IMG/VR virus record: IMGVR_UViG_3300032332_001684
Location: 1 to 46,168 of that record
Strand: one strand, 5' to 3'
Source: a virus
Lineage: Duplodnaviria > Caudoviricetes
DNA length: 46,168 nucleotides
In this document: positions 30,145-46,168 of the stretch, one piece after another
How positions within the stretch are numbered: the first letter of the stretch is position 1
Layout: every line of letters begins with the position of its first letter
The notes under the pieces: model-generated
Told to the model about the DNA's origin: nothing
What the model saw: the letters and a program-made list of their open reading frames with translations, nothing else
Databases searched by the model: none
Translations under genes and position numbers: made by a program

Positions 30145-30220
30145 TGGCCTGCCCGGGAGGGATCGAACCTCCGACCCACAGCTTAGAAGGCTGTTGCTCT
30201 ATCCACTGAGCTACGGGCAG
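30145..30220 (-). tRNA. tRNA-Arg (anticodon UCU)
   Basis: CTGCCCG acceptor stem, TAGCTCAGTGGATAGAGC D-arm, ACAGC-CTTCTAA-GCTGT anticodon arm, GGTTCGATCC T-loop, encoded CCA. Confidence 0.95.
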
Positions 30221-30225
30221 TGATC

Positions 30226-30303
<78 letters not shown>

Positions 30304-31491: not shown

Positions 31492-32256
31492 CTACCCAGT
31501 CTGTATAGTGTTGGCAGAGTTGGACAGTCGAGTATTGGCTATCCAGTTCCAGTGTTGTCCCAGTACTGGAGTCAGTCCAATGTGGCTACGTGGTATAAAG
31601 TAGCGTGAGTCGGCTGTGCCAATGTTCATTTGGTCCACTATGTTGCTGAACACGCTGTCTACCAGTATGATACATTCAGCACGTTCCAGTATGGTCAGCC
31701 AGTCCCATACCGAGTCTGTGGCTGCGGTAATTTCAATCTGTCTCCAGTTGGTGGGAATTATGGTTCTATCAAAGTCTGCACGGTGATCGCTGCCTTCAGT
31801 GTGTATGATCACATAAGGAGCAGTGTCAGAGCCGATGATTTGGTCGTACAGTGCCTGTTCTCTTGCGGCGTTGCGTGTAATGTATTCGGGCAGTCGCCAT
31901 TTGTAGTGAAATGGTACTTCTGCTGCTGTGTATTTGTACTGATCGAATTTGGTATGTTGAAAGAATGTTCTACGATGAAATTCCTGTCCAGTCAGTGCTT
32001 GATACAGCACTATGGCTTCTGTGCAGTTGACTGATCGCAGTGCTTGTATAGGCTGTTCAAAAAAGAACGAGCCGGAATCAGTGGTCACAGGAATCCATTC
32101 AATCCACGGCACAGTGTGTTGCCAGTGTGAAAGGAATTCTCTGCAGATGGGCCACACCACTGAGTAGCCTTGATCTCGGTAGTAGCCAGCAATGGGCAGT
32201 GCTATCACTATGTCGCCCAGTCCTCTGCTTTGTATCAGTCCAATTTTTTGATTCAT
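31492..32256 (-). CDS. GT9 (heptosyltransferase)-like glycosyltransferase
   Basis: RGLGDIVIALP N-terminal motif, PYVIIH, ILVDS..SNI. Confidence 0.65.
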   Translation of the reverse strand: MNQKIGLIQSRGLGDIVIALPIAGYYRDQGYSVVWPICREFLSHWQHTVPWIEWIPVTTDSGSFFFEQPIQALRSVNCTEAIVLYQALTGQEFHRRTFFQHTKFDQYKYTAAEVPFHYKWRLPEYITRNAAREQALYDQIIGSDTAPYVIIHTEGSDHRADFDRTIIPTNWRQIEITAATDSVWDWLTILERAECIILVDSVFSNIVDQMNIGTADSRYFIPRSHIGLTPVLGQHWNWIANTRLSNSANTIQTG

Positions 32257-32276
32257 GATGTTGTTTTGTTAGTGTA

Positions 32277-33053
32277 TTAAAAGTAAGTGATTTTTGGGTT
32301 GTTGGGAAAGTAGCATTCGTTGCGAGACTGTGGCAAGTCGCGTCGTTGTTCGACGTAAGCAGGGATGCCCAGTCCAATGGCCAGTGCCAGGGCGCTGCTT
32401 TGGTTGCCAATAAAGGTTTCTGCGCCGGCTATGATTTCAGCCACTTGCAGCATGGTGGCGGTTGGGTGGTATACTGTATTGGTCCAACCGGTTATCTCCC
32501 GGAATTGGTCAAATTCTGGGGGCAGTCCCAGGAACACAGCACGTTGGTCCCAGCCTTGGTTCTGCCATTGACGCCACTGGTCCGGGGGTGTAGCAGGTAT
32601 CCAGCGCTCAGTGCGATTGACCACTATGGGTCTGCCTGGGATTGTCTTGGTCATGGGCACAGTCAGCCAAGGGCGGTCGCGCAGTTCCTGTTGTTGTGCA
32701 GGGTCGCGGATACCAAAAGTGTTGGCGTAGATGTCCACATAGTTGCCTGGGTGGCCCACAAAGGCTGTACGGAATCTGTCCAGGTTGTGTGTGATTTCTG
32801 TGGTGTCAGTCATGGGCTCAAAACTTTCTATGTAGTGTTGAGCCAGCATGAAGTCCTGTAGGTATTCCAAGTCGTGTTGTGTCAGTCTGCCCCGGTGGAA
32901 CTCTGCTGGCTGGCTGCCGTAGTAGTGTTGGCCAATCCAGTCAATCTGGTTGAGATGTAGATAAAATTCTCCTGGGCCTAGATGTTGTACTATGGGCAGG
33001 CTGTAGATCAAGTCGCCCAGTGCGCCGCTGTGTTTGTATCGTCGGGTTGTCAT
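32277..33053 (-). CDS. GT9 (heptosyltransferase)-like glycosyltransferase
   Basis: SGALGDLIYSLP, PWL, IIAGAETFIGNQSSALALAIGLGIP. Confidence 0.7.
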   Translation of the reverse strand: MTTRRYKHSGALGDLIYSLPIVQHLGPGEFYLHLNQIDWIGQHYYGSQPAEFHRGRLTQHDLEYLQDFMLAQHYIESFEPMTDTTEITHNLDRFRTAFVGHPGNYVDIYANTFGIRDPAQQQELRDRPWLTVPMTKTIPGRPIVVNRTERWIPATPPDQWRQWQNQGWDQRAVFLGLPPEFDQFREITGWTNTVYHPTATMLQVAEIIAGAETFIGNQSSALALAIGLGIPAYVEQRRDLPQSRNECYFPNNPKITYF

Positions 33054-33212
33054 GGATTTGTTGGTTATGTGTATATTTAAATGCCAGTGTGTTACAGTGT
33101 AGACATTCTTGGTCTGGAGGTCAAATCTCTTGATATCCTCCTGTTTATCCAGTATAATGTCAGCAGCAGTATAATTAATCTTACGCCTGTAAATTTTAAG
33201 GAGGTCTATTCC

Positions 33213-33809
33213 ATGACTGAATCAGCAGCAATAATCAGCGAGGGTGAAGGTGCCAGTGAGTTGATTGCTCCCATGGGCTCGGCAGTGGTACAAGTACTCA
33301 CAGTGTTGAGCATGTTGGTGGCTTTGGTATTGGCAGTGAAATTGTTGACCTGGGCAGTGGCAGACAAACTGTCTCGTACCCAGGAAATTGTGGGTTCGGA
33401 TGTTACCGCACAGGTTCGCGAACAACAACTGGGCTGTTTGGCCAAAAACATCTATCATGAGGCTGCCAATGAGCCGTTTGAAGGCAAGGTTGCTGTGGCA
33501 CAGGTCACGTTGAATCGTGTGGCCAGCGGGCAGTTCCCGGATGACATTTGCCAAACCATTTATCAAAAAAACGTGTTTTATGAACGTGTGCTGTGCCAGT
33601 TTTCCTGGACCTGTGATAGAACTGTGAAATTCCGTCCAGTCAATCCGGCAGCCTATGCCGAAAGCATGGCTGTGGCCAAGAAAGTGTTGTTGGAAGGGTT
33701 TAGACTGCCCAGTTTAAAGAACGCATTATATTATCATGCTGCCTACATCGACCCCAAATGGAAGCGCAAACGCATCACACGCATAGGTCAACATATTTTT
33801 TACGAGTGA
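33213..33809 (+). CDS. Cell wall hydrolase, SleB/Hydrolase_2 family, with an N-terminal TM helix
   Basis: CLAKNIYHEA, GKVAVAQVTLNRV, QFSW, YYHA...PKW, IGQHIFY; AAGGAGG RBS. Confidence 0.9.
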   Translation: MTESAAIISEGEGASELIAPMGSAVVQVLTVLSMLVALVLAVKLLTWAVADKLSRTQEIVGSDVTAQVREQQLGCLAKNIYHEAANEPFEGKVAVAQVTLNRVASGQFPDDICQTIYQKNVFYERVLCQFSWTCDRTVKFRPVNPAAYAESMAVAKKVLLEGFRLPSLKNALYYHAAYIDPKWKRKRITRIGQHIFYE

Positions 33810-33819
33810 GTATCGCATC

Positions 33820-34140
33820 ATGTCTGTTATCGCATATATTCAAAATCTACCCCGGTTTGTTTACCAGTTTCTTAGAGACCACTTGGGCAGAATCAGTGCC
33901 CACACACTGGGTTGGATCACCATCATACTGTTGCACTTTGCTGCCATTCCCACGCTGTTGGCTGTGTTGTTGGGACAAACGGACAAGTTGCCGCCGGTGG
34001 ATCTCATGATCTTTGTGTGGTCGGCACTGATCACGCTGTTTTTCAAAAGCCTAATCGATCGTAATTTTGTTTACATTGCCACTATTTGTTTGGGTTTTGC
34101 TGCTCAAACAGTGATCATGTCCTTGATCCTGTTCAAATGA
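33820..34140 (+). CDS. Small membrane protein (about three TM helices)
   Basis: Hydrophobic 106-aa ORF just after the hydrolase. Confidence 0.7.
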   Translation: MSVIAYIQNLPRFVYQFLRDHLGRISAHTLGWITIILLHFAAIPTLLAVLLGQTDKLPPVDLMIFVWSALITLFFKSLIDRNFVYIATICLGFAAQTVIMSLILFK

Positions 34141-34209
34141 AGTATAAATAGTTTTATGAAGATCAGCGAACTACTACATGAAAAGCACATTGCCAACCCC
34201 ACCAAAAGT
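34088..34209 (+). repeat. Left copy of a 122-bp direct repeat flanking the cyclitol island
   Basis: Aligns without gaps to 37726-37847 (offset 3638); contains TATAAATA at 34143-34150. Confidence 0.92.
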
Positions 34210-34221
34210 AGCCCTTTGTGA
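34156..34221 (+). pseudogene. Truncated copy of the 5' end of gene 37794..38045
   Basis: MKISELLHEKHIANPTKSSPL* versus MKISELLTEKHIANPTKSQCA... Confidence 0.75.
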
Positions 34222-34281
34222 AAGCAATGGAATATCCGTAAATGATTATGTAGGCAAACGAGATCATTACACGAGAGACTG

Positions 34282-35013
34282 ATGAATATTGTTTTTGGCA
34301 TCTGTGGGGAAGGTCAAAGATTTAGGGATGCAGGATACAGTCAACCCAAATATCTTATAGAGTATCTTGGCCATTCCATGATCTATCATGCTGTGAAAAC
34401 TTTGAAAATTCTCGGCAAGATTTATTTTATAGTTAGGCAACAACATCTAGATCAATATCAAAATTTAGAACAAGACCTTTTGTCTATAGGTGACAAAATC
34501 ATTGTGTCTCCAGGATCAACATCTGGAGCAGCCGCAACTCTCTTGTTAACTCGAGACCACATAGATCATGATGAGCCTTTGATGTCAGTCAATTGTGATC
34601 AATATATGAATTGGGATTCTAAAGACTTTATGGCCAAATTGTCTGCCAATCAATCGACATCGTATGTGCTGACATTTAAAAGTGATAACCCTAGTTACAG
34701 TTATATCAAAATAAAAAACAATCAGGTAATAGAACTAAAAGAAAAAGAAAGGATCAGTGACCTTGCCACCTGTGGTATGTACCATTGGGCTAGAGCAGGA
34801 GATTTTTTTCAAGATGCACAGCAGATGATCTTTGAAAATAAAAACTCAAATAAAGAGCATTATGTGGCACCAGTATATAATTACTCTATAGCAAGAGGAG
34901 TAGTTGTTGATCATTATGAAATTGATCAACAACAGTTTTGGCCAGTAGGGACTCCTGGCGAACTTGATAAATTTTTAAAAAACTATGAAAATTCAAAATG
35001 TAAAAACTCTTAA
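34282..35013 (+). CDS. Sugar-phosphate nucleotidyltransferase (NTP_transferase, GT-A fold)
   Basis: GEGQRF..AGY..PKYLI, T.GAAAT, VNCDQ, KEK.RISD.AT.G.YHW, E.YVAPVYN, GTP.EL. Confidence 0.85.
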   Translation: MNIVFGICGEGQRFRDAGYSQPKYLIEYLGHSMIYHAVKTLKILGKIYFIVRQQHLDQYQNLEQDLLSIGDKIIVSPGSTSGAAATLLLTRDHIDHDEPLMSVNCDQYMNWDSKDFMAKLSANQSTSYVLTFKSDNPSYSYIKIKNNQVIELKEKERISDLATCGMYHWARAGDFFQDAQQMIFENKNSNKEHYVAPVYNYSIARGVVVDHYEIDQQQFWPVGTPGELDKFLKNYENSKCKNS

Positions 35014-35956
35014 AGGTGGGTCCTTAAACACTACTAAATTGTATGAAACTGATCAAGACAGTTTTATTAGAAAGTATGTGAGATTAGATTCTGACAGAGA
35101 ATATGGTTATGTTCGTTGGTACAGTCAATTTAAAAAACTACAGAGATTTAATCAAATGTTTCCCGGGCTGGTACCTGAAATCAGAGACATAGGAGAAGAA
35201 AATAATCATGCCTATGTGGAAATGCAATATGTGCCTAATCTAGATATTAAAACTCTATTTCAAAAGAATCTATTAGCAGGCCAGCAGGTAATAGAATTGA
35301 ATATAGCCTTATGGAAATCTTTTGATCTAATACATTCTCACAGATATAAACATTGTGCCAGTTCCCTATCTTTATATTTTATTGAAGAGGTAGAACAAAA
35401 ATTAAATGATGCTAGAAAATTCTCTGAATTTGAAAAATTCTATCAATTGGGATCGTACACTTATCAAGGAAAGACTGTTAGAGGACTCAACAAGACATAT
35501 CAAAAATTTAAAAAACTGTTTAATGGCAACATTACCGAGGAATCATATGTTCACGGAAATCCTACTCTAGAGAACATACTGTACGATCCTTTGACCAAAA
35601 AGGTAACCTTTATAGATCTCTATGAAGAAGGCATAGTAGACTCTAAGTTGGCAGATTACTCAATGGTTTTACAGTGTAGTCATAGTCTATACGGAGTCTA
35701 CAACGATCATGTAATAGCCGTCGATGGAAATGCAGTGACCTCTGATGCGGTGGTGCCCAGTGAATTGATTAGGTTCAATGATATTTTCAACAGCACTCTA
35801 GCAGATAGATGCAGTGATGAAGAGTTAGCACTGATAAAACTGTTTGAAGCAACACAATTTTTTAGGATGCTGCCCTTCAAATGTCATGCTGGTTATGTAG
35901 ATGCTGCAAAATTCTTTTATGTTCATGCATGTTATCTTGTAAATGATTTATTATGA
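34985..35956 (+). CDS. APH/choline-kinase-like phosphotransferase
   Basis: LKGGS Gly-loop, IRK, HGNPTLENILY (catalytic-loop variant with N in place of D), FID. Confidence 0.7.
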   Translation: MKIQNVKTLKGGSLNTTKLYETDQDSFIRKYVRLDSDREYGYVRWYSQFKKLQRFNQMFPGLVPEIRDIGEENNHAYVEMQYVPNLDIKTLFQKNLLAGQQVIELNIALWKSFDLIHSHRYKHCASSLSLYFIEEVEQKLNDARKFSEFEKFYQLGSYTYQGKTVRGLNKTYQKFKKLFNGNITEESYVHGNPTLENILYDPLTKKVTFIDLYEEGIVDSKLADYSMVLQCSHSLYGVYNDHVIAVDGNAVTSDAVVPSELIRFNDIFNSTLADRCSDEELALIKLFEATQFFRMLPFKCHAGYVDAAKFFYVHACYLVNDLL

Positions 35957-37020
35957 AATGGACAGTCAATGCCAACATTCCTGTTGAGTTTGATATTACC
36001 AAAATAGACAATATCAAGCCCTATATAGATTCAAATGTAGGACGTAATATTGTCGTGGTTGATCGCACAGTTTATGATCTATATCCTGATCTGTTCAAGT
36101 TAAAATCAAAAGATGCTGTGTTGGTAATTAACTGTCAAGAATCTACAAAGAATATTTCTTTGGTAGAGCAAATATTGTCTTTCTTTGAACAACAACAGGT
36201 GTTAAGAAGGGCCGAACCTATCTTGGCTATTGGTGGAGGAGTGCTATTAGACACTGTGGGATTCTGTTGCAGTATCTATCGTAGGGGAATACCTTACATA
36301 AGAATACCTACCACCTTGTTGGCCATTGTTGATGCCAGTGTAGGAGCCAAAACCGGTATCAATCATTTTGATAGAAGAAACAGATTAGGCAGTTATTATC
36401 CTCCTAGAACAACTATCATTGATCGATCTTTTATCAAAACTCAAACTGCTAGAGACATTGCTAACGGAGTAGCAGAAATATTGAAATTGGCCATTGTGCT
36501 GGATCTAGAGCTATTTGAACTGTTAGAATCATCAAACTCTTTGATTAACAATAAATTCCAGTGTCAGGTCGCTGACAATATTATAGATCGATCAATTACG
36601 GGTATGATAACAGCACTGAATCAAAATCTTTGGGAACATAATCTACAGAGGGAAGTAGATTTTGGTCATACATTTAGCCCAATTGTCGAAATGAAAAATA
36701 TAGAAACTATGCTGCATGGCGAAGCAGTTATATTAGATTGTCTTTTTAGCTGTTGCATATCTACCAACAGAGGTTTATTAGATTACCAAAACTTATACAG
36801 AATCCTCAAAGTAATTCAACAATTTGGTCTTCCTACTCAGCATGAAGATTTTTACAACCAAGACCTCTTGGATTTAGGATTTAAAGATGTTATAAAACAT
36901 AGAAACGGCAATCAATACTTGCCGTTGCCTACAAAAATAGGACAATGCAGAATTGTCAATGACATCAACTATAGAGAAATTCAAGAAGCAGTTAACACTA
37001 TGAGAATGTTAAATGAATAA
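35953..37020 (+). CDS. Sedoheptulose-7-phosphate cyclase, 2-epi-5-epi-valiolone synthase (EEVS)-type
   Basis: GGGVLLD, YRRGIPY.RIPTTLLAIVDASVGAKTG, NLWE..LQR.VDFGHTFSP, LHGEAV. Confidence 0.85.
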   Translation: MKWTVNANIPVEFDITKIDNIKPYIDSNVGRNIVVVDRTVYDLYPDLFKLKSKDAVLVINCQESTKNISLVEQILSFFEQQQVLRRAEPILAIGGGVLLDTVGFCCSIYRRGIPYIRIPTTLLAIVDASVGAKTGINHFDRRNRLGSYYPPRTTIIDRSFIKTQTARDIANGVAEILKLAIVLDLELFELLESSNSLINNKFQCQVADNIIDRSITGMITALNQNLWEHNLQREVDFGHTFSPIVEMKNIETMLHGEAVILDCLFSCCISTNRGLLDYQNLYRILKVIQQFGLPTQHEDFYNQDLLDLGFKDVIKHRNGNQYLPLPTKIGQCRIVNDINYREIQEAVNTMRMLNE

Positions 37021-37681
37021 GCATGCCCTAATTACCGGTACCAGCAGAGGATTGGGCCTAGAAACTGTCAAACACTTTTTATCTAAAGGTTGGTCTGTTA
37101 CAGGCATATCAAGAACTCAATCATTAACTCACAGCAACTATCAACATCTTTCCGCAGATATTTCAAATAGAGATGAACTGGCCAAAGTAATTTCCTATAT
37201 TCATTCGGACATTGATCTATTGATCAACAACGCCGCGGTATTTTCAATGCAGCCTTTTTCTAGTGAGTCTATCAATAACATTGAACAGATCATAGATATC
37301 AATCTAAAAGGCAGTATCTATACCACTAAATTCTGTTTAAGGCAATTACGAAATAGCAGCAAAATAATTTTTATTAATTCAGTAGCAGGGTTATCTGAAC
37401 TGGAAAATCAATCAGTATACTGTGCTGCCAAACACGGATTGACAGCGTTTGCAGGAGTGCTTGGAAAAGAATTAAGAACACAGGGAATAAAGGTTGCCAG
37501 TATCCATCCTGGCGGAATTAACACCAGCCTATGGAATGCCAGTAATCCCTATCCCTGTGGACCTGCTGAATCAGCTATGCCTGCACAGGCAGTGATCGAT
37601 GTTATTGATTTTATAGCCAACAGTGCTTACGACGTTGACTACAAAACTGTAAAACTTTTCCCCTCGATAGAATGGCACTAA
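37013..37681 (+). CDS. SDR family oxidoreductase
   Basis: TGTSRGLG, LINNAA, INS, YCAAK, PGG.NT. Confidence 0.9.
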   Translation: MNKHALITGTSRGLGLETVKHFLSKGWSVTGISRTQSLTHSNYQHLSADISNRDELAKVISYIHSDIDLLINNAAVFSMQPFSSESINNIEQIIDINLKGSIYTTKFCLRQLRNSSKIIFINSVAGLSELENQSVYCAAKHGLTAFAGVLGKELRTQGIKVASIHPGGINTSLWNASNPYPCGPAESAMPAQAVIDVIDFIANSAYDVDYKTVKLFPSIEWH

Positions 37682-37725
37682 CAATAGATCAAGATGCTTT
37701 CGACAGCGGCCAGATAGGCAGTAAA

Positions 37726-37847
37726 GTTTGGGTTTTGCTGCTCAAACAGTGATCATGTCCTTGATCCTGTTCAAGTGAAGTATAAATAGTTTTATGAAGA
37801 TCAGTGAATTATTAACCGAAAAGCACATTGCCAACCCTACTAAGAGT
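37726..37847 (+). repeat. Right copy of the 122-bp direct repeat
   Basis: Matches 34088-34209; TATAAATA at 37781-37788. Confidence 0.92.
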
Positions 37848-38045
37848 CAGTGTGCCATTAAACGACTGAGCAATGTGAGATACAGTCAGTGTGTGAGTCT
37901 TGGCTTGCGAGCACACGACAGCGAACATACTGCCGGGACTGGCACACAGGGCAAAAAGGGAACCGGCGTTAGACTAAAGGGCAAACGTATGCGTAGCGAA
38001 AAGCACGGTGGTCCTGTAAAGAATTACGGCGGCGACCACAGTTAA
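37794..38045 (+). CDS. Small basic late protein
   Basis: Starts 5 nt after a perfect TATAAATA; MKISELL start. Confidence 0.75.
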   Translation: MKISELLTEKHIANPTKSQCAIKRLSNVRYSQCVSLGLRAHDSEHTAGTGTQGKKGTGVRLKGKRMRSEKHGGPVKNYGGDHS

Positions 38046-38383
38046 AAGTCGCGTAGGTTTCCGGCTATTAGTTGTAAAACTTCTTCGTGATCTAATTGGC
38101 CCAGTATGGATCCTAACCCGTAGATTTTGTCATCGTTGTCGTTCATCAAATGTGATAGTCCTACAAACTCCAGCAATTCACTGTAACTAATGGGTTCGTC
38201 ACGCATGTGACTGACCCAGATACAGGTAATAAAGGCACAACTCATTAGGGTTTGATCGTCGGTAATACCGCGTTCTTCGCACCATGCCACAGTGCGATTT
38301 AGATAGTAGTCAATGTCCTCTAGACGATTTTCCAGTTGAGAGATCCATTCCTGTGTATGCTCTCGGAACCAAGGCTGGGTCAT
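38042..38383 (-). CDS. Hypothetical protein
   Basis: ATGA overlap with the iscA stop. Confidence 0.7.
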   Translation of the reverse strand: MTQPWFREHTQEWISQLENRLEDIDYYLNRTVAWCEERGITDDQTLMSCAFITCIWVSHMRDEPISYSELLEFVGLSHLMNDNDDKIYGLGSILGQLDHEEVLQLIAGNLRDF

Positions 38384-38700
38384 ATGGAAAAACTCTCGCC
38401 ACAACCGCATTCGTTTTTGGAGTTGGGATTGCGGAATTCAAATTCGTGATTGAGTCCGCGACTGACCCAGTCCATCACAGTGCCCTGTAGATAGATGCTG
38501 TGCCGCGGGTCCATGTAAATGTGTACACCCTTGGATTCGTAAATGGCCAACGTGGAGTCGATTTTGTCTATGAATTCCAGAATGTAACTCAAGCCCGAGC
38601 AGCCGGAAGTTCTCACGCCAATGCGTATGCCCAGTCCTTTACCGCGGTGTAGTAATTGTTCTTGGACTCTGTTGGCTGCTGAATCAGTTAGGGTAATCAT
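38380..38700 (-). CDS. iscA: A-type Fe-S cluster carrier, IscA-like
   Basis: MITLTDSAA, GIRIGV..SGCSGLSY, F.NPN....CGCGESF. Confidence 0.88.
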   Translation of the reverse strand: MITLTDSAANRVQEQLLHRGKGLGIRIGVRTSGCSGLSYILEFIDKIDSTLAIYESKGVHIYMDPRHSIYLQGTVMDWVSRGLNHEFEFRNPNSKNECGCGESFSI

Positions 38701-38741
38701 AGTAGTTTTTAACTTGAGTATTTATGTCGATAAATAGTTCT

Positions 38742-39065
38742 ATGATAACAATAAGTCAAAGTGCTCGTGCCAAGATACTGGATCTACTAGCGGAAGAAAA
38801 CAATCCTGATGTCTTTGTGCGGGCGTTTGTACAAGGTGGCGGGTGTAGTGGATTCAGTTATGGGTTTACGTTTGATCAACAGCCAGGAGAAGATGATCAT
38901 GAGTTTCTCTTGGGGTCTGGTCGGATCATGATAGACTCTATGAGCATGGCGTATCTTGAGGGTGCTGAAATAGACTACAGTGAAGGTCTGTTGGAAAGTG
39001 GGTTTACTGTTCGTAACCCTAATGCTGTAACATCTTGCGGTTGCGGAAACAGTTTCTCTGTTTAA
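38742..39065 (+). CDS. erpA: A-type Fe-S cluster carrier, ErpA-like
   Basis: R.FVQGGGCSGFSYGFTFD, DSMSM.YL.GAEIDY, NPNA..SCGCGNSFS. Confidence 0.88.
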   Translation: MITISQSARAKILDLLAEENNPDVFVRAFVQGGGCSGFSYGFTFDQQPGEDDHEFLLGSGRIMIDSMSMAYLEGAEIDYSEGLLESGFTVRNPNAVTSCGCGNSFSV

Positions 39066-39072
39066 TCTATGG

Positions 39073-39101
39073 TTGACAGCACATCCAATCTGTGGTATAC
39101 T
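39073..39101 (+). promoter_or_regulatory. Sigma70 promoter for the ligase operon
   Basis: TTGACA, 17-bp spacer, TATACT, with an extended -10 TG. Confidence 0.8.
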
Positions 39102-39133
39102 AGCAGTATCTTAACCACACCGACACAGATTCT

Positions 39134-40453
39134 ATGAGTAATTGTTTTCGAGTTATCACTGCCCTGGAACAACACCCCAGTCGTATCAACAAAGAACAAA
39201 TCCTAGAGGCCGAAGCCGTGTCAGACAATACCGAATTGTTTGCAGGCATGCGAATGGCCTTGGATGCACTGATCACGTTTGGTGTACGTCAAGTACCGAT
39301 TAAAAAATCAACTGATCCACAGACCAGTCCGACTGGATTACATTGGGATGCATTTGCCCTACAGGTACAAGCCCTAATTGACCGTAGAGCAACTGGTCAC
39401 CTTGCCCGTGATTTGATTGAGCATCTCATGTACTGTGCCACTGAACAGCAGTGGAATGGATGGTATCGTCGTATCCTAATCAAAGACCTGCGTTGTGGAG
39501 TCAGTGAAAAGACCATCAACAAGGTACTCAAAGTATTTCCTGGTATTGCTTCGATTCCAGTGTTTGAGTGTCAGTTGGCACATGATGGAGCCAACCATGA
39601 GAAGAAGATTGTGGGTCGTAAATTGTTGGAGCCCAAACTGGATGGAGTTCGTTGTCTCACAGTGATTGACTATGAAAATCGCACAGTGACTCAGTTCAGT
39701 CGCAATGGCAAAGAGTTGACCAATTTTGGTCACATCACCAGTGCCATACTGGACAATATTGATTTATTGGCTCGTAGTTATGTATTGGATGGAGAGATTG
39801 TCAGTGCCAGTTTTCAGGATCTCATGAAGCAGGTACATCGCAAGGATGATGTGCAGGCTGAGGATGCGCGATTGATGTTGTTCGACATTGTTCCGCTCAG
39901 TGAGTTTCGAGCAGGAGCCAGTGTTTTAGGACAACGTCGCCGCAGTAATTTTCTTCGTGGGTTAAGGCGTATCTTTGATCACATTGGCAGTATTGACATC
40001 ATTCCGCAGAAAGAAGTGGATCTGGATGGATTAGTTGGTCAGTTGGAGTATCGTCAGTACAACAAGGATGCAGTGGATTCTGGCTATGAAGGCATTATGA
40101 TCAAGGATCCAGATGCTGTATATGAGTGCAAGCGTTCAGTGTCTTGGCTCAAGCAAAAGCCGTTCATCGAAGTCAGTCTCACTGTGGTTGAAACAGAAGA
40201 AGGTACTGGCCGCAATGCAGGCAAGATGGGTGCCTTGGTTTGTGAAGGCATTGACGATGACAAACACATTCGTGTGAATGTTGGCAGTGGGTTTACTGAT
40301 CAAGAGCGAGATGAGTTTTGGGCTTGTCGAACAGATGGGCAGGTTGTTGAAGTACGTGCGGATGCCATCACGCAGAATCAAGATGGCACATATAGCCTGC
40401 GATTCCCTAGGTTCTTAAAGTTTCGCGGGTTTCGTGCAGGTGAAAAAATCTAA
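39134..40453 (+). CDS. ATP-dependent DNA ligase (T4 gp30-like)
   Basis: EPKLDGVR, SRNGK, LDGEI, FDIV, EGIMIK, KRS..WLK, VGSGF, SLRFPRF. Confidence 0.93.
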   Translation: MSNCFRVITALEQHPSRINKEQILEAEAVSDNTELFAGMRMALDALITFGVRQVPIKKSTDPQTSPTGLHWDAFALQVQALIDRRATGHLARDLIEHLMYCATEQQWNGWYRRILIKDLRCGVSEKTINKVLKVFPGIASIPVFECQLAHDGANHEKKIVGRKLLEPKLDGVRCLTVIDYENRTVTQFSRNGKELTNFGHITSAILDNIDLLARSYVLDGEIVSASFQDLMKQVHRKDDVQAEDARLMLFDIVPLSEFRAGASVLGQRRRSNFLRGLRRIFDHIGSIDIIPQKEVDLDGLVGQLEYRQYNKDAVDSGYEGIMIKDPDAVYECKRSVSWLKQKPFIEVSLTVVETEEGTGRNAGKMGALVCEGIDDDKHIRVNVGSGFTDQERDEFWACRTDGQVVEVRADAITQNQDGTYSLRFPRFLKFRGFRAGEKI

Positions 40454-41172: not shown

Positions 41173-41685
41173 TCAGTTGATATAGTCTATCCAACTGGGA
41201 TGTTGTAGGTCCCAACTCATTTTCCTACGTTTTTCCACCAGTTCGTAGTAACTGGGTTTTCTCGGTGCGATCTTAGGTTTGATCTGTTGATTATTGCCTT
41301 TGCGACTGTTGCAGTCACCACAAGCACACACACAATTTTCCCATATGCTCTTACCGCCGTGACTGATTGGCAGTACATGGTCCAATGTGGCATAGCGTTT
41401 CTGTATGTCTATGCCGCAGTATTGGCAGCGGTATTGGTCGCGGAGGAATACGTTTTGTTTGCTGAAACGAACAGCAGTTTTCTTTTTTTGGTATTCCCGT
41501 AGCATCATCACAGCAGGTACAGGAGTGCTCCAGTTTACACTGTGAACAATCCAGTCTGTGTGCCATTCCAGCACAGAGGCTTTATCTGTGACTAGATATT
41601 TAATGGCTTCCTCCCAAGTAATGGTGCTCAATGGCAACATACTAATAGGAGCAGCGTCTGCATTAAGTACAAGTGTGGCCGACAT
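41173..41685 (-). CDS. HNH endonuclease
   Basis: LVLNA, NVFLRD.YRCQYCG, TLDHVLP.SHGG..WENCV.AC..CN..K. Confidence 0.9.
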   Translation of the reverse strand: MSATLVLNADAAPISMLPLSTITWEEAIKYLVTDKASVLEWHTDWIVHSVNWSTPVPAVMMLREYQKKKTAVRFSKQNVFLRDQYRCQYCGIDIQKRYATLDHVLPISHGGKSIWENCVCACGDCNSRKGNNQQIKPKIAPRKPSYYELVEKRRKMSWDLQHPSWIDYIN

Positions 41686-44845: not shown

Positions 44846-46168
44846 ATGGCATTAGATTTTCCACCAAGCACCAGTACCAGCATAGGATCCATATTTACAG
44901 GAACCAATGGTATTACCTATATCTACAATGGAACACGTTGGACCGGACAGTCCAATACCGCTGTAACAGGAATACAAGGCGTAACTGGATCGCAAGGCGT
45001 AACTGGATCGCAAGGCGTAACAGGACCTGGTGTATACGAAGGGACAACCTCACCTGCTAGCACAAGTACTTTATGGTACGATACTACCTACGGTAGATTG
45101 TTTATCTACTACGACAGCACCTGGGTTGATGCAAGTCCGGGTACAAATGGTATTGCTGGATCCCAAGGCATAACTGGTACACAAGGAGTACAAGGTGTTA
45201 ATGGAATACAAGGAGTGCAAGGTGTTAATGGAATACAAGGAGTACAAGGTGTCAATGGAATACAAGGAGTGCAAGGTTCTCTAGGAACCAAGGGCGATCA
45301 AGGTATCAGTGTAACACTACAGGGAAGTACCAGTACATCGGCAGCATTACCACTAGCAGGGTCTGCTGGGCAAGGATGGATTGTCAATGACACTGGAAAT
45401 CTATGGTTTTGGAATGTGTCGACTGGTGCATGGAATGACATCGGAAAAATTGTTGGACCAGCAGGTAGTCAAGGAGTCACAGGTGCTCAAGGGCACCAAG
45501 GTTCTCAAGGAGCCACAGGATCTCAAGGAATGGTTGGTACTCAAGGCGTCCAGGGACTACAAGGTGTCCAGGGACTACAAGGCGTCCAGGGACTACAAGG
45601 CGTTCAAGGACTACAAGGTGTTCAAGGAACAGCCGGATTACAAGGAACAGCCGGATTACAAGGAACAGCCGGATTACAAGGAACAACGGGCGGCCAAGGA
45701 GTACAGGGTGTTCAAGGTCGTCAAGGTGCGCAAGGCACAGATGGCACACAGGGTATTACGGGTGTTCAAGGTCGTCAAGGTGCGCAAGGCACAGATGGTA
45801 CACAAGGTACTACAGGCGCTCAAGGTACCCGTGGAATAAATGGAACCAATGGAACCAATGGGTCAAACGGATCACAAGGTGCAACGGGTAGCCAAGGAAC
45901 TACAGGTACACAAGGAACTAGTGGAACAAATGGATCACAAGGAACCTCAGGTACGGGTACTCAAGGAACTACAGGTGCAGGTATCCAGGGCATTACAGGC
46001 AGTCAAGGAACCACTGGTATCCAGGGCATTACAGGTAGTCAAGGAACTACAGGCAGTCAAGGAACCACTGGTATCCAGGGCATTACAGGTAGTCAAGGAA
46101 CTACAGGCAGTCAAGGAACCACTGGTATCCAGGGCATTACAGGTAGTCAAGGAACTACAGGCAGTCAA
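44846..46168 (+). CDS. Collagen-like fibre protein (3'-truncated; absent from the ORF track)
   Basis: MALDFPPS...TYIYNGTRW start, LWYDTTYGRLFIYYDSTWVDASPG module shared with 41778..43352, long G-X-Q/G-X-T repeats, no stop before the window end; GTAAATA upstream. Confidence 0.85.
   Translation, partial: MALDFPPSTSTSIGSIFTGTNGITYIYNGTRWTGQSNTAVTGIQGVTGSQGVTGSQGVTGPGVYEGTTSPASTSTLWYDTTYGRLFIYYDSTWVDASPGTNGIAGSQGITGTQGVQGVNGIQGVQGVNGIQGVQGVNGIQGVQGSLGTKGDQGISVTLQGSTSTSAALPLAGSAGQGWIVNDTGNLWFWNVSTGAWNDIGKIVGPAGSQGVTGAQGHQGSQGATGSQGMVGTQGVQGLQGVQGLQGVQGLQGVQGLQGVQGTAGLQGTAGLQGTAGLQGTTGGQGVQGVQGRQGAQGTDGTQGITGVQGRQGAQGTDGTQGTTGAQGTRGINGTNGTNGSNGSQGATGSQGTTGTQGTSGTNGSQGTSGTGTQGTTGAGIQGITGSQGTTGIQGITGSQGTTGSQGTTGIQGITGSQGTTGSQGTTGIQGITGSQGTTGSQ
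46016..46168 (+). repeat. 54-bp coding tandem repeat in the collagen region
   Basis: GGTATCCAGGGCATTACAGGTAGTCAAGGAACTACAGGCAGTCAAGGAACCACT, about three copies up to the window edge. Confidence 0.85.

Follow-up and report, generated by a model that had tools for sequence, protein, structure and literature searches.

Pathways that lead to C7 cyclitols are described, in the literature consulted, for secondary metabolites (acarbose, validamycin and kirkamide) and for sunscreens. The closest described system is the GDP-valienol branch of acarbose and validamycin biosynthesis, whose enzymes are the cyclase AcbC/ValA, the kinases AcbM/ValC and AcbU, AcbL/AcbN, AcbJ, the nucleotidyltransferase AcbR/VldB and the pseudoglycosyltransferase AcbS/ValL. 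According to PMC9200736, GDP-valienol is formed by the cyclitol 1-kinase AcbU, which phosphorylates the 1-hydroxyl of valienol 7-phosphate and, more slowly, that of valienol, together with the cyclitol-1-phosphate guanylyltransferase AcbR/VldB, AcbR converting valienol 1-phosphate and GTP to GDP-valienol. Here we analyzed the IMG/VR virus record IMGVR_UViG_3300032332_001684, a stretch of 46,168 bases (hereafter called the window; a fragment whose completeness CheckV puts at 10), in which four genes at 34282-37681 encode a nucleotidyltransferase, a kinase-like protein, a cyclase and a short-chain dehydrogenase/reductase (SDR). We consider it probable that these four genes constitute a self-contained route from host sedoheptulose 7-phosphate to a nucleotide-activated C7 cyclitol (carbasugar).

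The predicted logic of this cassette, namely cyclization by an EEVS (the synthase that forms 2-epi-5-epi-valiolone), carbonyl reduction, C-1 phosphorylation and nucleotidylation, is the same as that of the GDP-valienol branch as given in PMC9200736, and the cassette cyclase is a true homolog of ValA. However, the cassette has only four genes and would represent a much shorter route, no epimerase, dehydratase, 7-kinase, 7-phosphatase or pseudoglycosyltransferase family being found in the window by annotation with Pfam and PHROG, and its product would probably be a saturated cyclitol, not valienol. Whereas validamycin ValC is described as ROK-like in PMC9200736, the cassette kinase has the fold of aminoglycoside phosphotransferases (APH); the comparison covers ValC. 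The genomic settings also differ, since the acarbose and validamycin genes belong to secondary-metabolite clusters of actinomycetes, whereas the cassette occurs in phages and in surface-glycan clusters of diverse bacteria and archaea. No phage or viral example of this pathway was found in the literature searched by title listings, a search from which subscription papers are excluded, and when the text of a 2026 cyclitol review (PMC12904256) was searched for the terms phage, virus, lipopolysaccharide and polysaccharide, none of them was present. New in the present analysis are the insertion footprint of the cassette, the empty sites, a second position in other lakes, the displacement of the reductase, the HGN motif of the kinase-like protein and the cyclase tree.

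Cyclase, nucleotidyltransferase and reductase

As originally predicted, 34282-37681 holds four overlapping AT-rich genes, all on the plus strand and with successive overlaps of 29, 4 and 8 nt. They encode a nucleotidyltransferase of the sugar-1-phosphate type (34282-35013; 243 aa), a kinase-like protein with an APH/NahK fold (34985-35956; 323 aa), a predicted EEVS-type sedoheptulose-7-phosphate cyclase (35953-37020; 355 aa) and a classical SDR, the predicted ketocyclitol reductase (37013-37681; 222 aa). The GC contents of these genes are, in this order, 0.35, 0.34, 0.353 and 0.392, and those of the flanks are 0.469 and 0.448. Pfam bore out the identities that had been proposed for the nucleotidyltransferase (NTP_transferase), the cyclase (DHQ_synthase and DHQS_C) and the SDR (adh_short, 6e-40).

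The cyclase shows the two-domain architecture of enzymes related to dehydroquinate synthase (DHQS), with matches to PF01761 (DHQ_synthase, N-terminal; 4.7e-34) and PF24621 (DHQS_C; 1.7e-24). Among all solved structures, its best match was 4P53 (5.8e-80, 272 bits, residues 29-350), followed by 5TPR, which we take to be desmethyl-4-deoxygadusol synthase (DDGS; the depositors' name is 3-dehydroquinate synthase), with 185 bits, DHQS with at most 148 bits and DOIS, the synthase that makes 2-deoxy-scyllo-inosose, with 81 bits. The profile of the cyclase family (38 members) gave the same order, with 364.6 bits for 4P53, 278.2 for 5TPR, at most 192.7 for DHQS and 107.2 for DOIS. 4P53 is ValA, the EEVS of validamycin biosynthesis (PMC4426668). 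Compared with ValA, the phage cyclase is shorter (355 aa against a chain of 420 residues) and is devoid of the N-terminal extension, the alignment starting at ValA residue 68.

The segment quoted in the original prediction is present in the cyclase and reads NLWEHNLQREVDFGHTFSP; the aligned segments are NLWEHQLRRLVDFGHSFSP in ValA, NLHELDLDRVIAYGHTWSP in 5TPR and ...RAGLNYGHTFGH in the Helicobacter DHQS. The NLWEH..R.VDFGH(S/T)FSP and LHGEA segments, presumably elements of the metal site of the cyclase, are common to the phage enzyme and ValA, whereas at the aligned places DDGS reads NLHE..AYGHTWSP and DHQS LNYGHTFGH, the differences falling at W227, D236 and S242-P243. W227, E228, R233, D236, H239, S242, P243 and H255 are invariant across the 38 members of the cyclase family. 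For this segment, the signature argument made earlier for EEVS holds, the phage motif matching that of ValA and differing from those of 5TPR and DHQS.

That the cyclase might be an ordinary DHQS, or a DDGS acting in the synthesis of sunscreens (mycosporine-like amino acids, gadusol), is suggested by the source databases, which mostly name its homologs '3-dehydroquinate synthase', and by the Pfam domain name DHQ_synthase. Nevertheless, we regard this explanation as extremely improbable: the cyclase misses the aroB equivalog TIGR01357 of NCBIfam (221 bits against a cut-off of 305), ValA leads DDGS by 87 bits and the best DHQS by 124 bits, and the motifs of both differ at the aligned sites. In addition, annotation with Pfam and PHROG found no methyltransferase, O-methyltransferase, ATP-grasp or methyltransferase-oxidoreductase (MT-Ox) gene adjoining the four genes in the window, in agreement with the original prediction. 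The preference for EEVS over both DHQS and DDGS is upheld by sequence and profile comparison alike. As for 2-epi-valiolone synthase (EVS), the structure ranking spans ValA, DDGS, DHQS and DOIS, no EVS structure existing for comparison. Confirmed EVS enzymes cluster where they would be mistaken for DHQS, according to PMC5133447, and EVS is for this reason less likely than EEVS for the phage cyclase. Taken as a whole, the comparisons support an EEVS-type cyclase, for which production of 2-epi-5-epi-valiolone is predicted.

The nucleotidyltransferase matches PF00483 (NTP_transferase) with 43.5 bits against a cut-off of 21.2 (3.7e-11) and phrog_3980 at 2.7e-54. A profile built from 37 members had its best solved match, over the full length, in 4EVW (1.6e-47), an entry characterized by its depositor's name only ('nucleoside-diphosphate-sugar pyrophosphorylase') and by far the closest solved relative of this family; RmlA came next (6.4e-15, 58 bits), and lower matches included GMPP (3e-12) and GlmU (about 1e-10). 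MurU is among the NCBIfam matches (1.7e-07). G9, R13 and K23 are invariant in the 37 sequences, and we read them against G-x-G-x-R-(x)n-K, which we take to be the N-terminal signature of sugar-1-phosphate nucleotidyltransferases.

These matches also bear on the explanation that the activated cyclitol serves as a phospho-alcohol donor comparable to CDP-choline, CDP-glycerol, CDP-ribitol or CDP-inositol, in which case a phosphodiester would link cyclitol phosphate, and not the cyclitol itself, to a glycan or lipid. The pairing of an APH-fold kinase with a small nucleotidyltransferase resembles what we take to be the LicA/LicC arrangement, the nucleotidyltransferase weakly matches an NCBIfam model for inositol-1-phosphate cytidylyltransferase (0.0066), ribitol-5-phosphate and 2-C-methyl-D-erythritol-4-phosphate (MEP) cytidylyltransferases are found among its profile matches (4.5e-05 to 3e-04), and a gene of the inositol monophosphatase family lies near the cassette in one cellular locus (L083). 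We nevertheless consider a donor of this kind unlikely, as the profile matches the sugar-1-phosphate enzymes far better (RmlA at 6e-15, followed by GMPP and GlmU) and no LicD-, CDP-alcohol-phosphatidyltransferase- or TagF-type gene occurs in the annotated flanks. A sugar-type NDP-cyclitol (NDP, nucleoside diphosphate) is the product that we prefer.

The translation of the SDR gene contains the classical elements TGTSRGLG (TGxxxGxG), NNAA and YCAAK (YxxxK). In five cellular loci (L083, L086, L098, L099 and L112), an aldo/keto reductase gene directly follows the cyclase gene in place of the SDR gene. This replacement by a non-orthologous enzyme argues that carbonyl reduction after cyclization is essential.

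Distribution of the cassette in phages and cells

Alignment-based scans found a cyclase relative on 118 IMG/VR contigs, the best 80 of which were examined (50-67% identity), and the best 80 of 416 relatives in species-representative genomes made up the cellular set (38-53% identity); single-sequence scans had returned no viral or genome-contig loci. The cyclases of two other entries, P0001 and P0002, are 93% and 82% identical. A phage collection contained no DNA similar to the cassette, and tblastn of the cyclase against it recovered only host-like aroB in 15 records, at 26-30% identity.

When the 80 viral loci were searched by tblastn with the window proteins, the SDR was detected in all of them, invariably after the cyclase. 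The kinase was present in 78 loci and the nucleotidyltransferase in 71, with gene order and strand as in the window. Every missing kinase or nucleotidyltransferase falls where the contig stops short of the place at which the gene would be expected. The first 23 viral loci (group I) carry approximately 1.5-2.2 kb of extra sequence between the nucleotidyltransferase and kinase genes, which is absent in the window.

This extra sequence comprises an ORF of 110 aa and a gene for a RuBisCO-like protein (PF00016, 1.9e-33, 379 aa), found at L001:4925-6061 and in 19 other viral loci (cluster 15). The window cassette is the closest relative of group I, yet it has neither the RuBisCO-like gene nor the 110-aa ORF. 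In a Woesearchaeote locus (L093:5-1159), a RuBisCO with its N-domain is present, with a HAD gene and an IF-2B-family gene nearby.

Accessory genes surrounding the core in other phages encode an aminotransferase, a carbamoyltransferase, a methyltransferase, a 2-oxoglutarate oxygenase, a radical SAM protein and an epimerase. We searched 23 accessory-family profiles against the 279 six-frame ORFs of the window and found none of these families, apart from a weak match of the epimerase profile to the SDR. As the accessory families, including the RuBisCO-like, radical SAM, methyltransferase and aminotransferase ones, are absent from the fragment, the window copy is the bare four-gene core.

Two further gene families were noted in viral loci. 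In 45 of them (cluster 5; for instance L045:9504-12062 and L034:12715-14508), among which are many group-II phages, a gene downstream of the cassette encodes a cytidylyltransferase-like N-terminus joined to a Zeta-toxin/AAA_33 kinase-like domain. A protein of approximately 236 aa without a Pfam family is encoded directly after the SDR in L031 (8754-9461) and 46 other viral loci (cluster 6); it is absent from the window and could be the missing transferase.

Among the cellular loci, the kinase gene adjoins the cyclase gene in 19 of the 80, mostly in the order kinase-cyclase-reductase-nucleotidyltransferase. These 19 loci include myxobacteria, Saccharibacteria, Fibrobacteria, Balneolaceae, Holophagaceae, Magnetovibrionaceae, a Polynucleobacter isolate (L100), an Actinomarina single-cell assembly, the Woesearchaeote and another archaeon. 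The other 61, mostly from actinomycetes, share the cyclase alone. In Polynucleobacter, the cassette is bordered on one side by ManC, a family 2 glycosyltransferase (GT2) and a Wzz-like gene, and on the other side by an ABC-like protein, a GT9 glycosyltransferase, a GDP-mannose 4,6-dehydratase and a dTDP-sugar epimerase. Pfam glycosyltransferases occur in the flanks of 8 of the 12 annotated cellular loci, some of them together with Wzx-type flippases, Wzz or GtrA, and sugar-nucleotide-modifying enzymes only (DegT aminotransferases, epimerases, methyltransferases and a carbamoyltransferase) in two more. The four functions are found as a set in many phages as well as in surface-glycan clusters of cells. 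Here the EEVS-type entry enzyme stands at the head of a minimal predicted activation route of four genes, which occurs widely in aquatic phages (the 118 contigs mentioned above) and also in the surface-glycan clusters of Polynucleobacter, myxobacteria, Saccharibacteria, Balneolaceae, Actinomarina and DPANN-type archaea.

The cellular contexts help to weigh two other uses of the product. A soluble cyclitol or NDP-cyclitol could act as an inhibitor, or its synthesis as a sink for sedoheptulose 7-phosphate, blocking a glycosidase or the host synthesis of ADP-heptose and lipopolysaccharide. Valienamine-type C7 cyclitols are potent glycosidase inhibitors, sedoheptulose 7-phosphate also feeds ADP-heptose, and the module itself contains no dedicated transferase. 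Most cellular copies, on the other hand, reside inside glycan-assembly clusters with glycosyltransferases and flippases, and a free inhibitor needs no conserved nucleotidyltransferase; we therefore consider this use quite unlikely. The NDP-cyclitol could also be a donor for hypermodification of phage DNA, as T4-like phages glycosylate their DNA from NDP-sugars and the window has a T4-like backbone with DNA ligase and replication genes. This is very unlikely in our opinion, given that the cellular homologs belong to surface-glycan clusters, that no DNA glycosyltransferase or base-modifying gene adjoins the cassette, and that none of 80 related backbones has the module, which is an accessory insertion. 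We favor attachment of the cyclitol to an acceptor, which may be a host surface glycan, a virion protein or another target.

A tree of 86 cyclases was inferred under LG+G4 by a quick search, with SH-aLRT values as the only support and two annotated AroBs as the root; the program flagged long branches and composition bias, the window row included. The cassette-linked cyclases form one group (support 94), separate from the clades of actinomycetes. A single clade (98) contains all 22 viral rows together with two cellular rows that have the phage gene order, namely a gammaproteobacterial metagenome-assembled genome, with citrate synthase in its flanks, and the Actinomarina assembly. The Magnetovibrionaceae cassette is sister to this viral clade (95). 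The window belongs to a viral subclade of seven rows (99), the other six of which are all from group I.

The kinase-like protein and the proposed pathway

The structure of the kinase-like protein was modeled by AlphaFold with an alignment of 39 sequences (pLDDT 94.9, pTM 0.92) and has a bilobal, protein-kinase-like fold. Its top Foldseek matches are APH(4)-Ia, the N-acetylhexosamine 1-kinase NahK, APH(2'') and FN3K (prob 1.0, TMq 0.5-0.6). The KGGS loop, K30, E39, E196, N197, D211 and E215 are invariant in the 39 sequences. With regard to the original prediction of a kinase, the APH-type fold of the model is in its favor, while the Pfam scores are sub-threshold and the HGN catalytic loop is atypical.

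According to the pathway that we propose, the EEVS-type cyclase would convert sedoheptulose 7-phosphate by cyclization into a 2-epi-5-epi-valiolone-type ketocyclitol, with release of the phosphate, and the SDR (elsewhere the aldo/keto reductase) would reduce the ring ketone to a hydroxyl. The APH-fold kinase would then phosphorylate the new pseudo-anomeric hydroxyl, and the nucleotidyltransferase would couple the cyclitol phosphate to a nucleoside monophosphate to yield an NDP-cyclitol. Finally, a glycosyltransferase from outside the cassette may place the cyclitol on a glycan or protein. The cyclase comparison, the conserved four-gene unit and the replacement of the reductase all support the C7-cyclitol activation operon that had been proposed, whereas the chemistry and the order of the steps are what we infer from the gene identities.

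The kinase-nucleotidyltransferase half of the cassette has the composition that we take to be that of the NahK-type, AmgK/MurU and LicA/LicC salvage pairs, namely an APH-fold kinase and a small PF00483 nucleotidyltransferase. Unlike in these pairs, Asn replaces the Asp of the catalytic loop in the cassette, and the kinase-nucleotidyltransferase pair is accompanied by a cyclase and a reductase, which would make its substrate de novo.

Several observations count against the proposed route, and a number of them concern the kinase-like protein. APH-type kinases have the catalytic loop H-x-D-x4-N with a catalytic Asp. In the window protein this loop (residues 190-197) reads HGNPTLEN, and HGN-x-TLEN is present in 38 of the 39 members, HGD occurring only in the archaeal L088. 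The window protein is also below every Pfam kinase cut-off (19.8 against 22.4 bits for Fructosamin_kin), and the family has only weak sequence matches in PDB (0.0037), to the JAK2 pseudokinase domain, which also has HGN; it is this shared HGN that accounts for those being the only matches. The HGN motif and the JAK2 match imply that the protein may not be a conventional kinase. With respect to the cyclase, PMC4426668 cites a 14-site EEVS fingerprint (Kean et al. 2014), while our comparison covers the NLWEH..FSP segment. The cassette cyclases form a clade of their own, apart from the actinomycete cyclases, and could therefore make a different product. As to the final step, there is no dedicated transferase inside the 3.5-kb module, and 2 of the 12 annotated cellular loci (L084 and L091) have no glycan genes in their annotated flanks. 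The two GT9-like genes o254 and o258 upstream of the cassette (31492-33053, minus strand) were tried as cassette-specific transferases and rejected: 0 of the 80 cassette loci have them in the fetched flanks, and 0 of the 80 o258 loci have the cassette.

The kinase-related observations could mean that the kinase-like protein is a pseudokinase or performs other chemistry, in which case the cassette product would not be an NDP-cyclitol and, for example, the nucleotidyltransferase would act on a different sugar phosphate. The HGN in place of HGD, a pseudokinase domain as the best PDB match and the failure to reach a Pfam kinase cut-off all point this way. By contrast, the glycine-rich loop is conserved, as are the Lys of beta-3, the Glu of helix C, the metal-binding residues N197 and D211 and, in the catalytic loop, the invariant E196, which argues for a working nucleotide-binding active site; the homolog in L045 passes the Pfam APH cut-off (24.3 against 23.2 bits), and the strict linkage with the nucleotidyltransferase calls for a phosphorylated substrate, the EEVS reaction removing the only phosphate. 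A pseudokinase is thus unlikely in our judgment. The kinase-like protein is, by the fold of its model, a small-molecule kinase with a conserved atypical active site, and its activity is predicted. The invariant Glu (E196) adjoins the metal-binding Asn in this family, an arrangement that may represent a distinct catalytic solution. In its own right, this family of kinases with an atypical HGN poses a defined biochemical question.

Should the product be an NDP-carbasugar that feeds glycosyltransferases, this would represent a new class of glycan building block and a new phage auxiliary metabolism tapping the pentose-phosphate pathway, as well as a compact enzymatic access to activated carbasugars, compounds that attract interest as sugar mimics resistant to glycosidases. 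A bolder idea, which we put forward only tentatively, is that phages, bacteria and archaea sharing this cassette may incorporate a carba-heptose, a C7 cyclitol with carbon in place of the ring oxygen, from an NDP-cyclitol donor into their structural glycans, and that the cassette moves between phage genomes as a module flanked by promoters. If true, it would be the first example of a carbasugar in a glycan of a cell surface or virion. Its linkage would be resistant to ordinary glycosidases, and such a residue could be armour against the depolymerases of competing phages or could rewrite a receptor.

Insertion of the cassette and its neighbourhood

The fragment belongs to a T4-like myovirus, with PHROG matches to a gp32-type single-stranded DNA-binding protein, UvsX, primase, DnaB-like helicase, DNA ligase, baseplate and tail-fibre proteins, and the cassette-bearing T4-like phage originates from lake metagenomes. 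In this genome the cassette is a recently inserted, repeat-flanked mobile module, an aspect that the original prediction had not seen. The module (34204-37731, plus strand) is approximately 3.5 kb long with a GC content of 0.36, its edges being given by contigs of other sequencing runs. A 122-nt direct repeat brackets the four genes, the left copy at 34088-34209 and the right copy at 37726-37847 (both plus strand) being 92% identical and spaced by 3638.

Each copy of the repeat contains the last ~52 nt of a small membrane-protein ORF, the TATAAATA box and the first codons of orf83 (the first 18 in the left copy). The membrane-protein ORF (33820-34140, plus strand; 106 aa) is the backbone gene to the left of the insertion site, with homologs of 53-80% identity in 13 of 80 backbone loci. 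In the right copy, TATAAATA lies at 37781-37788 and precedes the beginning of the intact orf83 (37794-38045, plus strand), the backbone gene to the right of the cassette, which directly follows the membrane-protein gene in cassette-free relatives. At the left copy, a truncated duplicate of the 5' end of orf83 (34156-34221, plus strand), which aligns to 37794 onward and runs for 21 codons before a stop, is a remnant left by the insertion.

The cassette had been placed downstream of a perfect late promoter. A T4-type late-promoter-like TATAAATA box is indeed located at 34143-34150 (plus strand), 131 nt upstream of the nucleotidyltransferase ATG, but it is one of the two junction copies. The motif occurs four times in the window against 2.1 expected, a count reached in 17 of 100 shuffles, and is not enriched; promoter and terminator scans around the cassette gave nothing above chance.

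Empty sites were sought in the best 80 of 161 related backbones, which were fetched through the conserved neighbour o258. None of these 80 o258-linked backbones has cassette genes. The membrane-protein ORF and orf83 are both present in 11 of the 80, and in eight of these they are 11-20 nt apart, which is the empty site; the spacer between them contains an ATAAATA-like box.

Near-identical pieces of the cassette were found in freshwater and lake metagenome runs, and there was no RNA run among the listed sequencing runs with such pieces. Contigs of four runs were aligned to 32000-40000 at ≥90% identity. The cassette pieces start at 34204 in three runs (X3, X4 and X5) and end at 37731 in all four (X2-X5), and these positions are the inner edges of the repeat. 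In two runs from two further studies, the end at 37731 is followed by 782-784 other letters and then by the hydrolase gene (~33423), so that the cassette is upstream of the hydrolase. This second position and the shared edges in contigs of other lakes indicate that close relatives carry this module at differing positions. One contig of 10.4 kb joins 34119 directly to 37836, a single junction without the cassette in which one side has only 35 letters. The exact junction pattern had 0 matches in viral contigs. Together with the empty sites and the second position, the insertion between repeats provides a clean natural example of module movement between T4-like genomes.

Upstream of the cassette, the small membrane-protein gene is accompanied by a cell-wall hydrolase gene (PF07486), beyond which o258 and o254 lie on the opposite strand. 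The model of o258 (32277-33053, minus strand; pLDDT 93.6) has a GT-B fold, and its top Foldseek matches are WaaC, the GT9 structure 3tov (TMq 0.60), WaaF and TibC, pointing to a GT9-like, heptosyltransferase-fold glycosyltransferase. The GT9 heptosyltransferases WaaC, WaaF and TibC are thus the best fold match to o258, which is ~70 residues shorter. No Pfam family, PF01075 (GT9) included, matched o258 even at E 10. The donor of GT9 enzymes, ADP-heptose, is itself a C7 unit derived from sedoheptulose 7-phosphate. The GT9-likeness of o254 comes from a single Atlas lead; aligned to the o258 family by hhalign, o254 shares the N-terminal GxGD..LP motif alone (probability 1.5%). Both are backbone genes and mere candidates for using the cassette product. 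The o258 family has 559 database relatives of ~255 aa without a Pfam domain, and the o254/o258 pair is conserved, o254 adjoining o258 in 62 of 80 related viral loci.

Several other features of the fragment were recorded. Two divergent genes for A-type Fe-S cluster carriers (PF01521; 6e-17 and 4.5e-17) lie just downstream of orf83, at 38380-38700 (minus strand) and 38724-39065 (plus strand). In 24 group-II viral loci, a homolog with ~50% identity to the second carrier lies upstream of the cassette at a distance of ~4.4 kb; the backbone relatives have the Fe-S carriers as well. An HNH endonuclease gene (phrog_16726, 5e-35; 41173-41685, minus strand), possibly for a homing endonuclease, is situated between a DNA-endonuclease-like gene and the baseplate and tail-fibre genes. 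The tail-fibre ORF at 44846-46168 (plus strand) runs off the end of the window and has 3-4 repeated stretches that match PHROGs of collagen-like minor tail and tail-fibre proteins. Adjacent genes for tRNA-Arg(TCT) and tRNA-Met(CAT) are found at 30145-30303 (minus strand), the tRNA-Arg part matching, at ~90%, the genes for tRNA-Arg in a Pelagibacter phage and in a Methylophilales phage.

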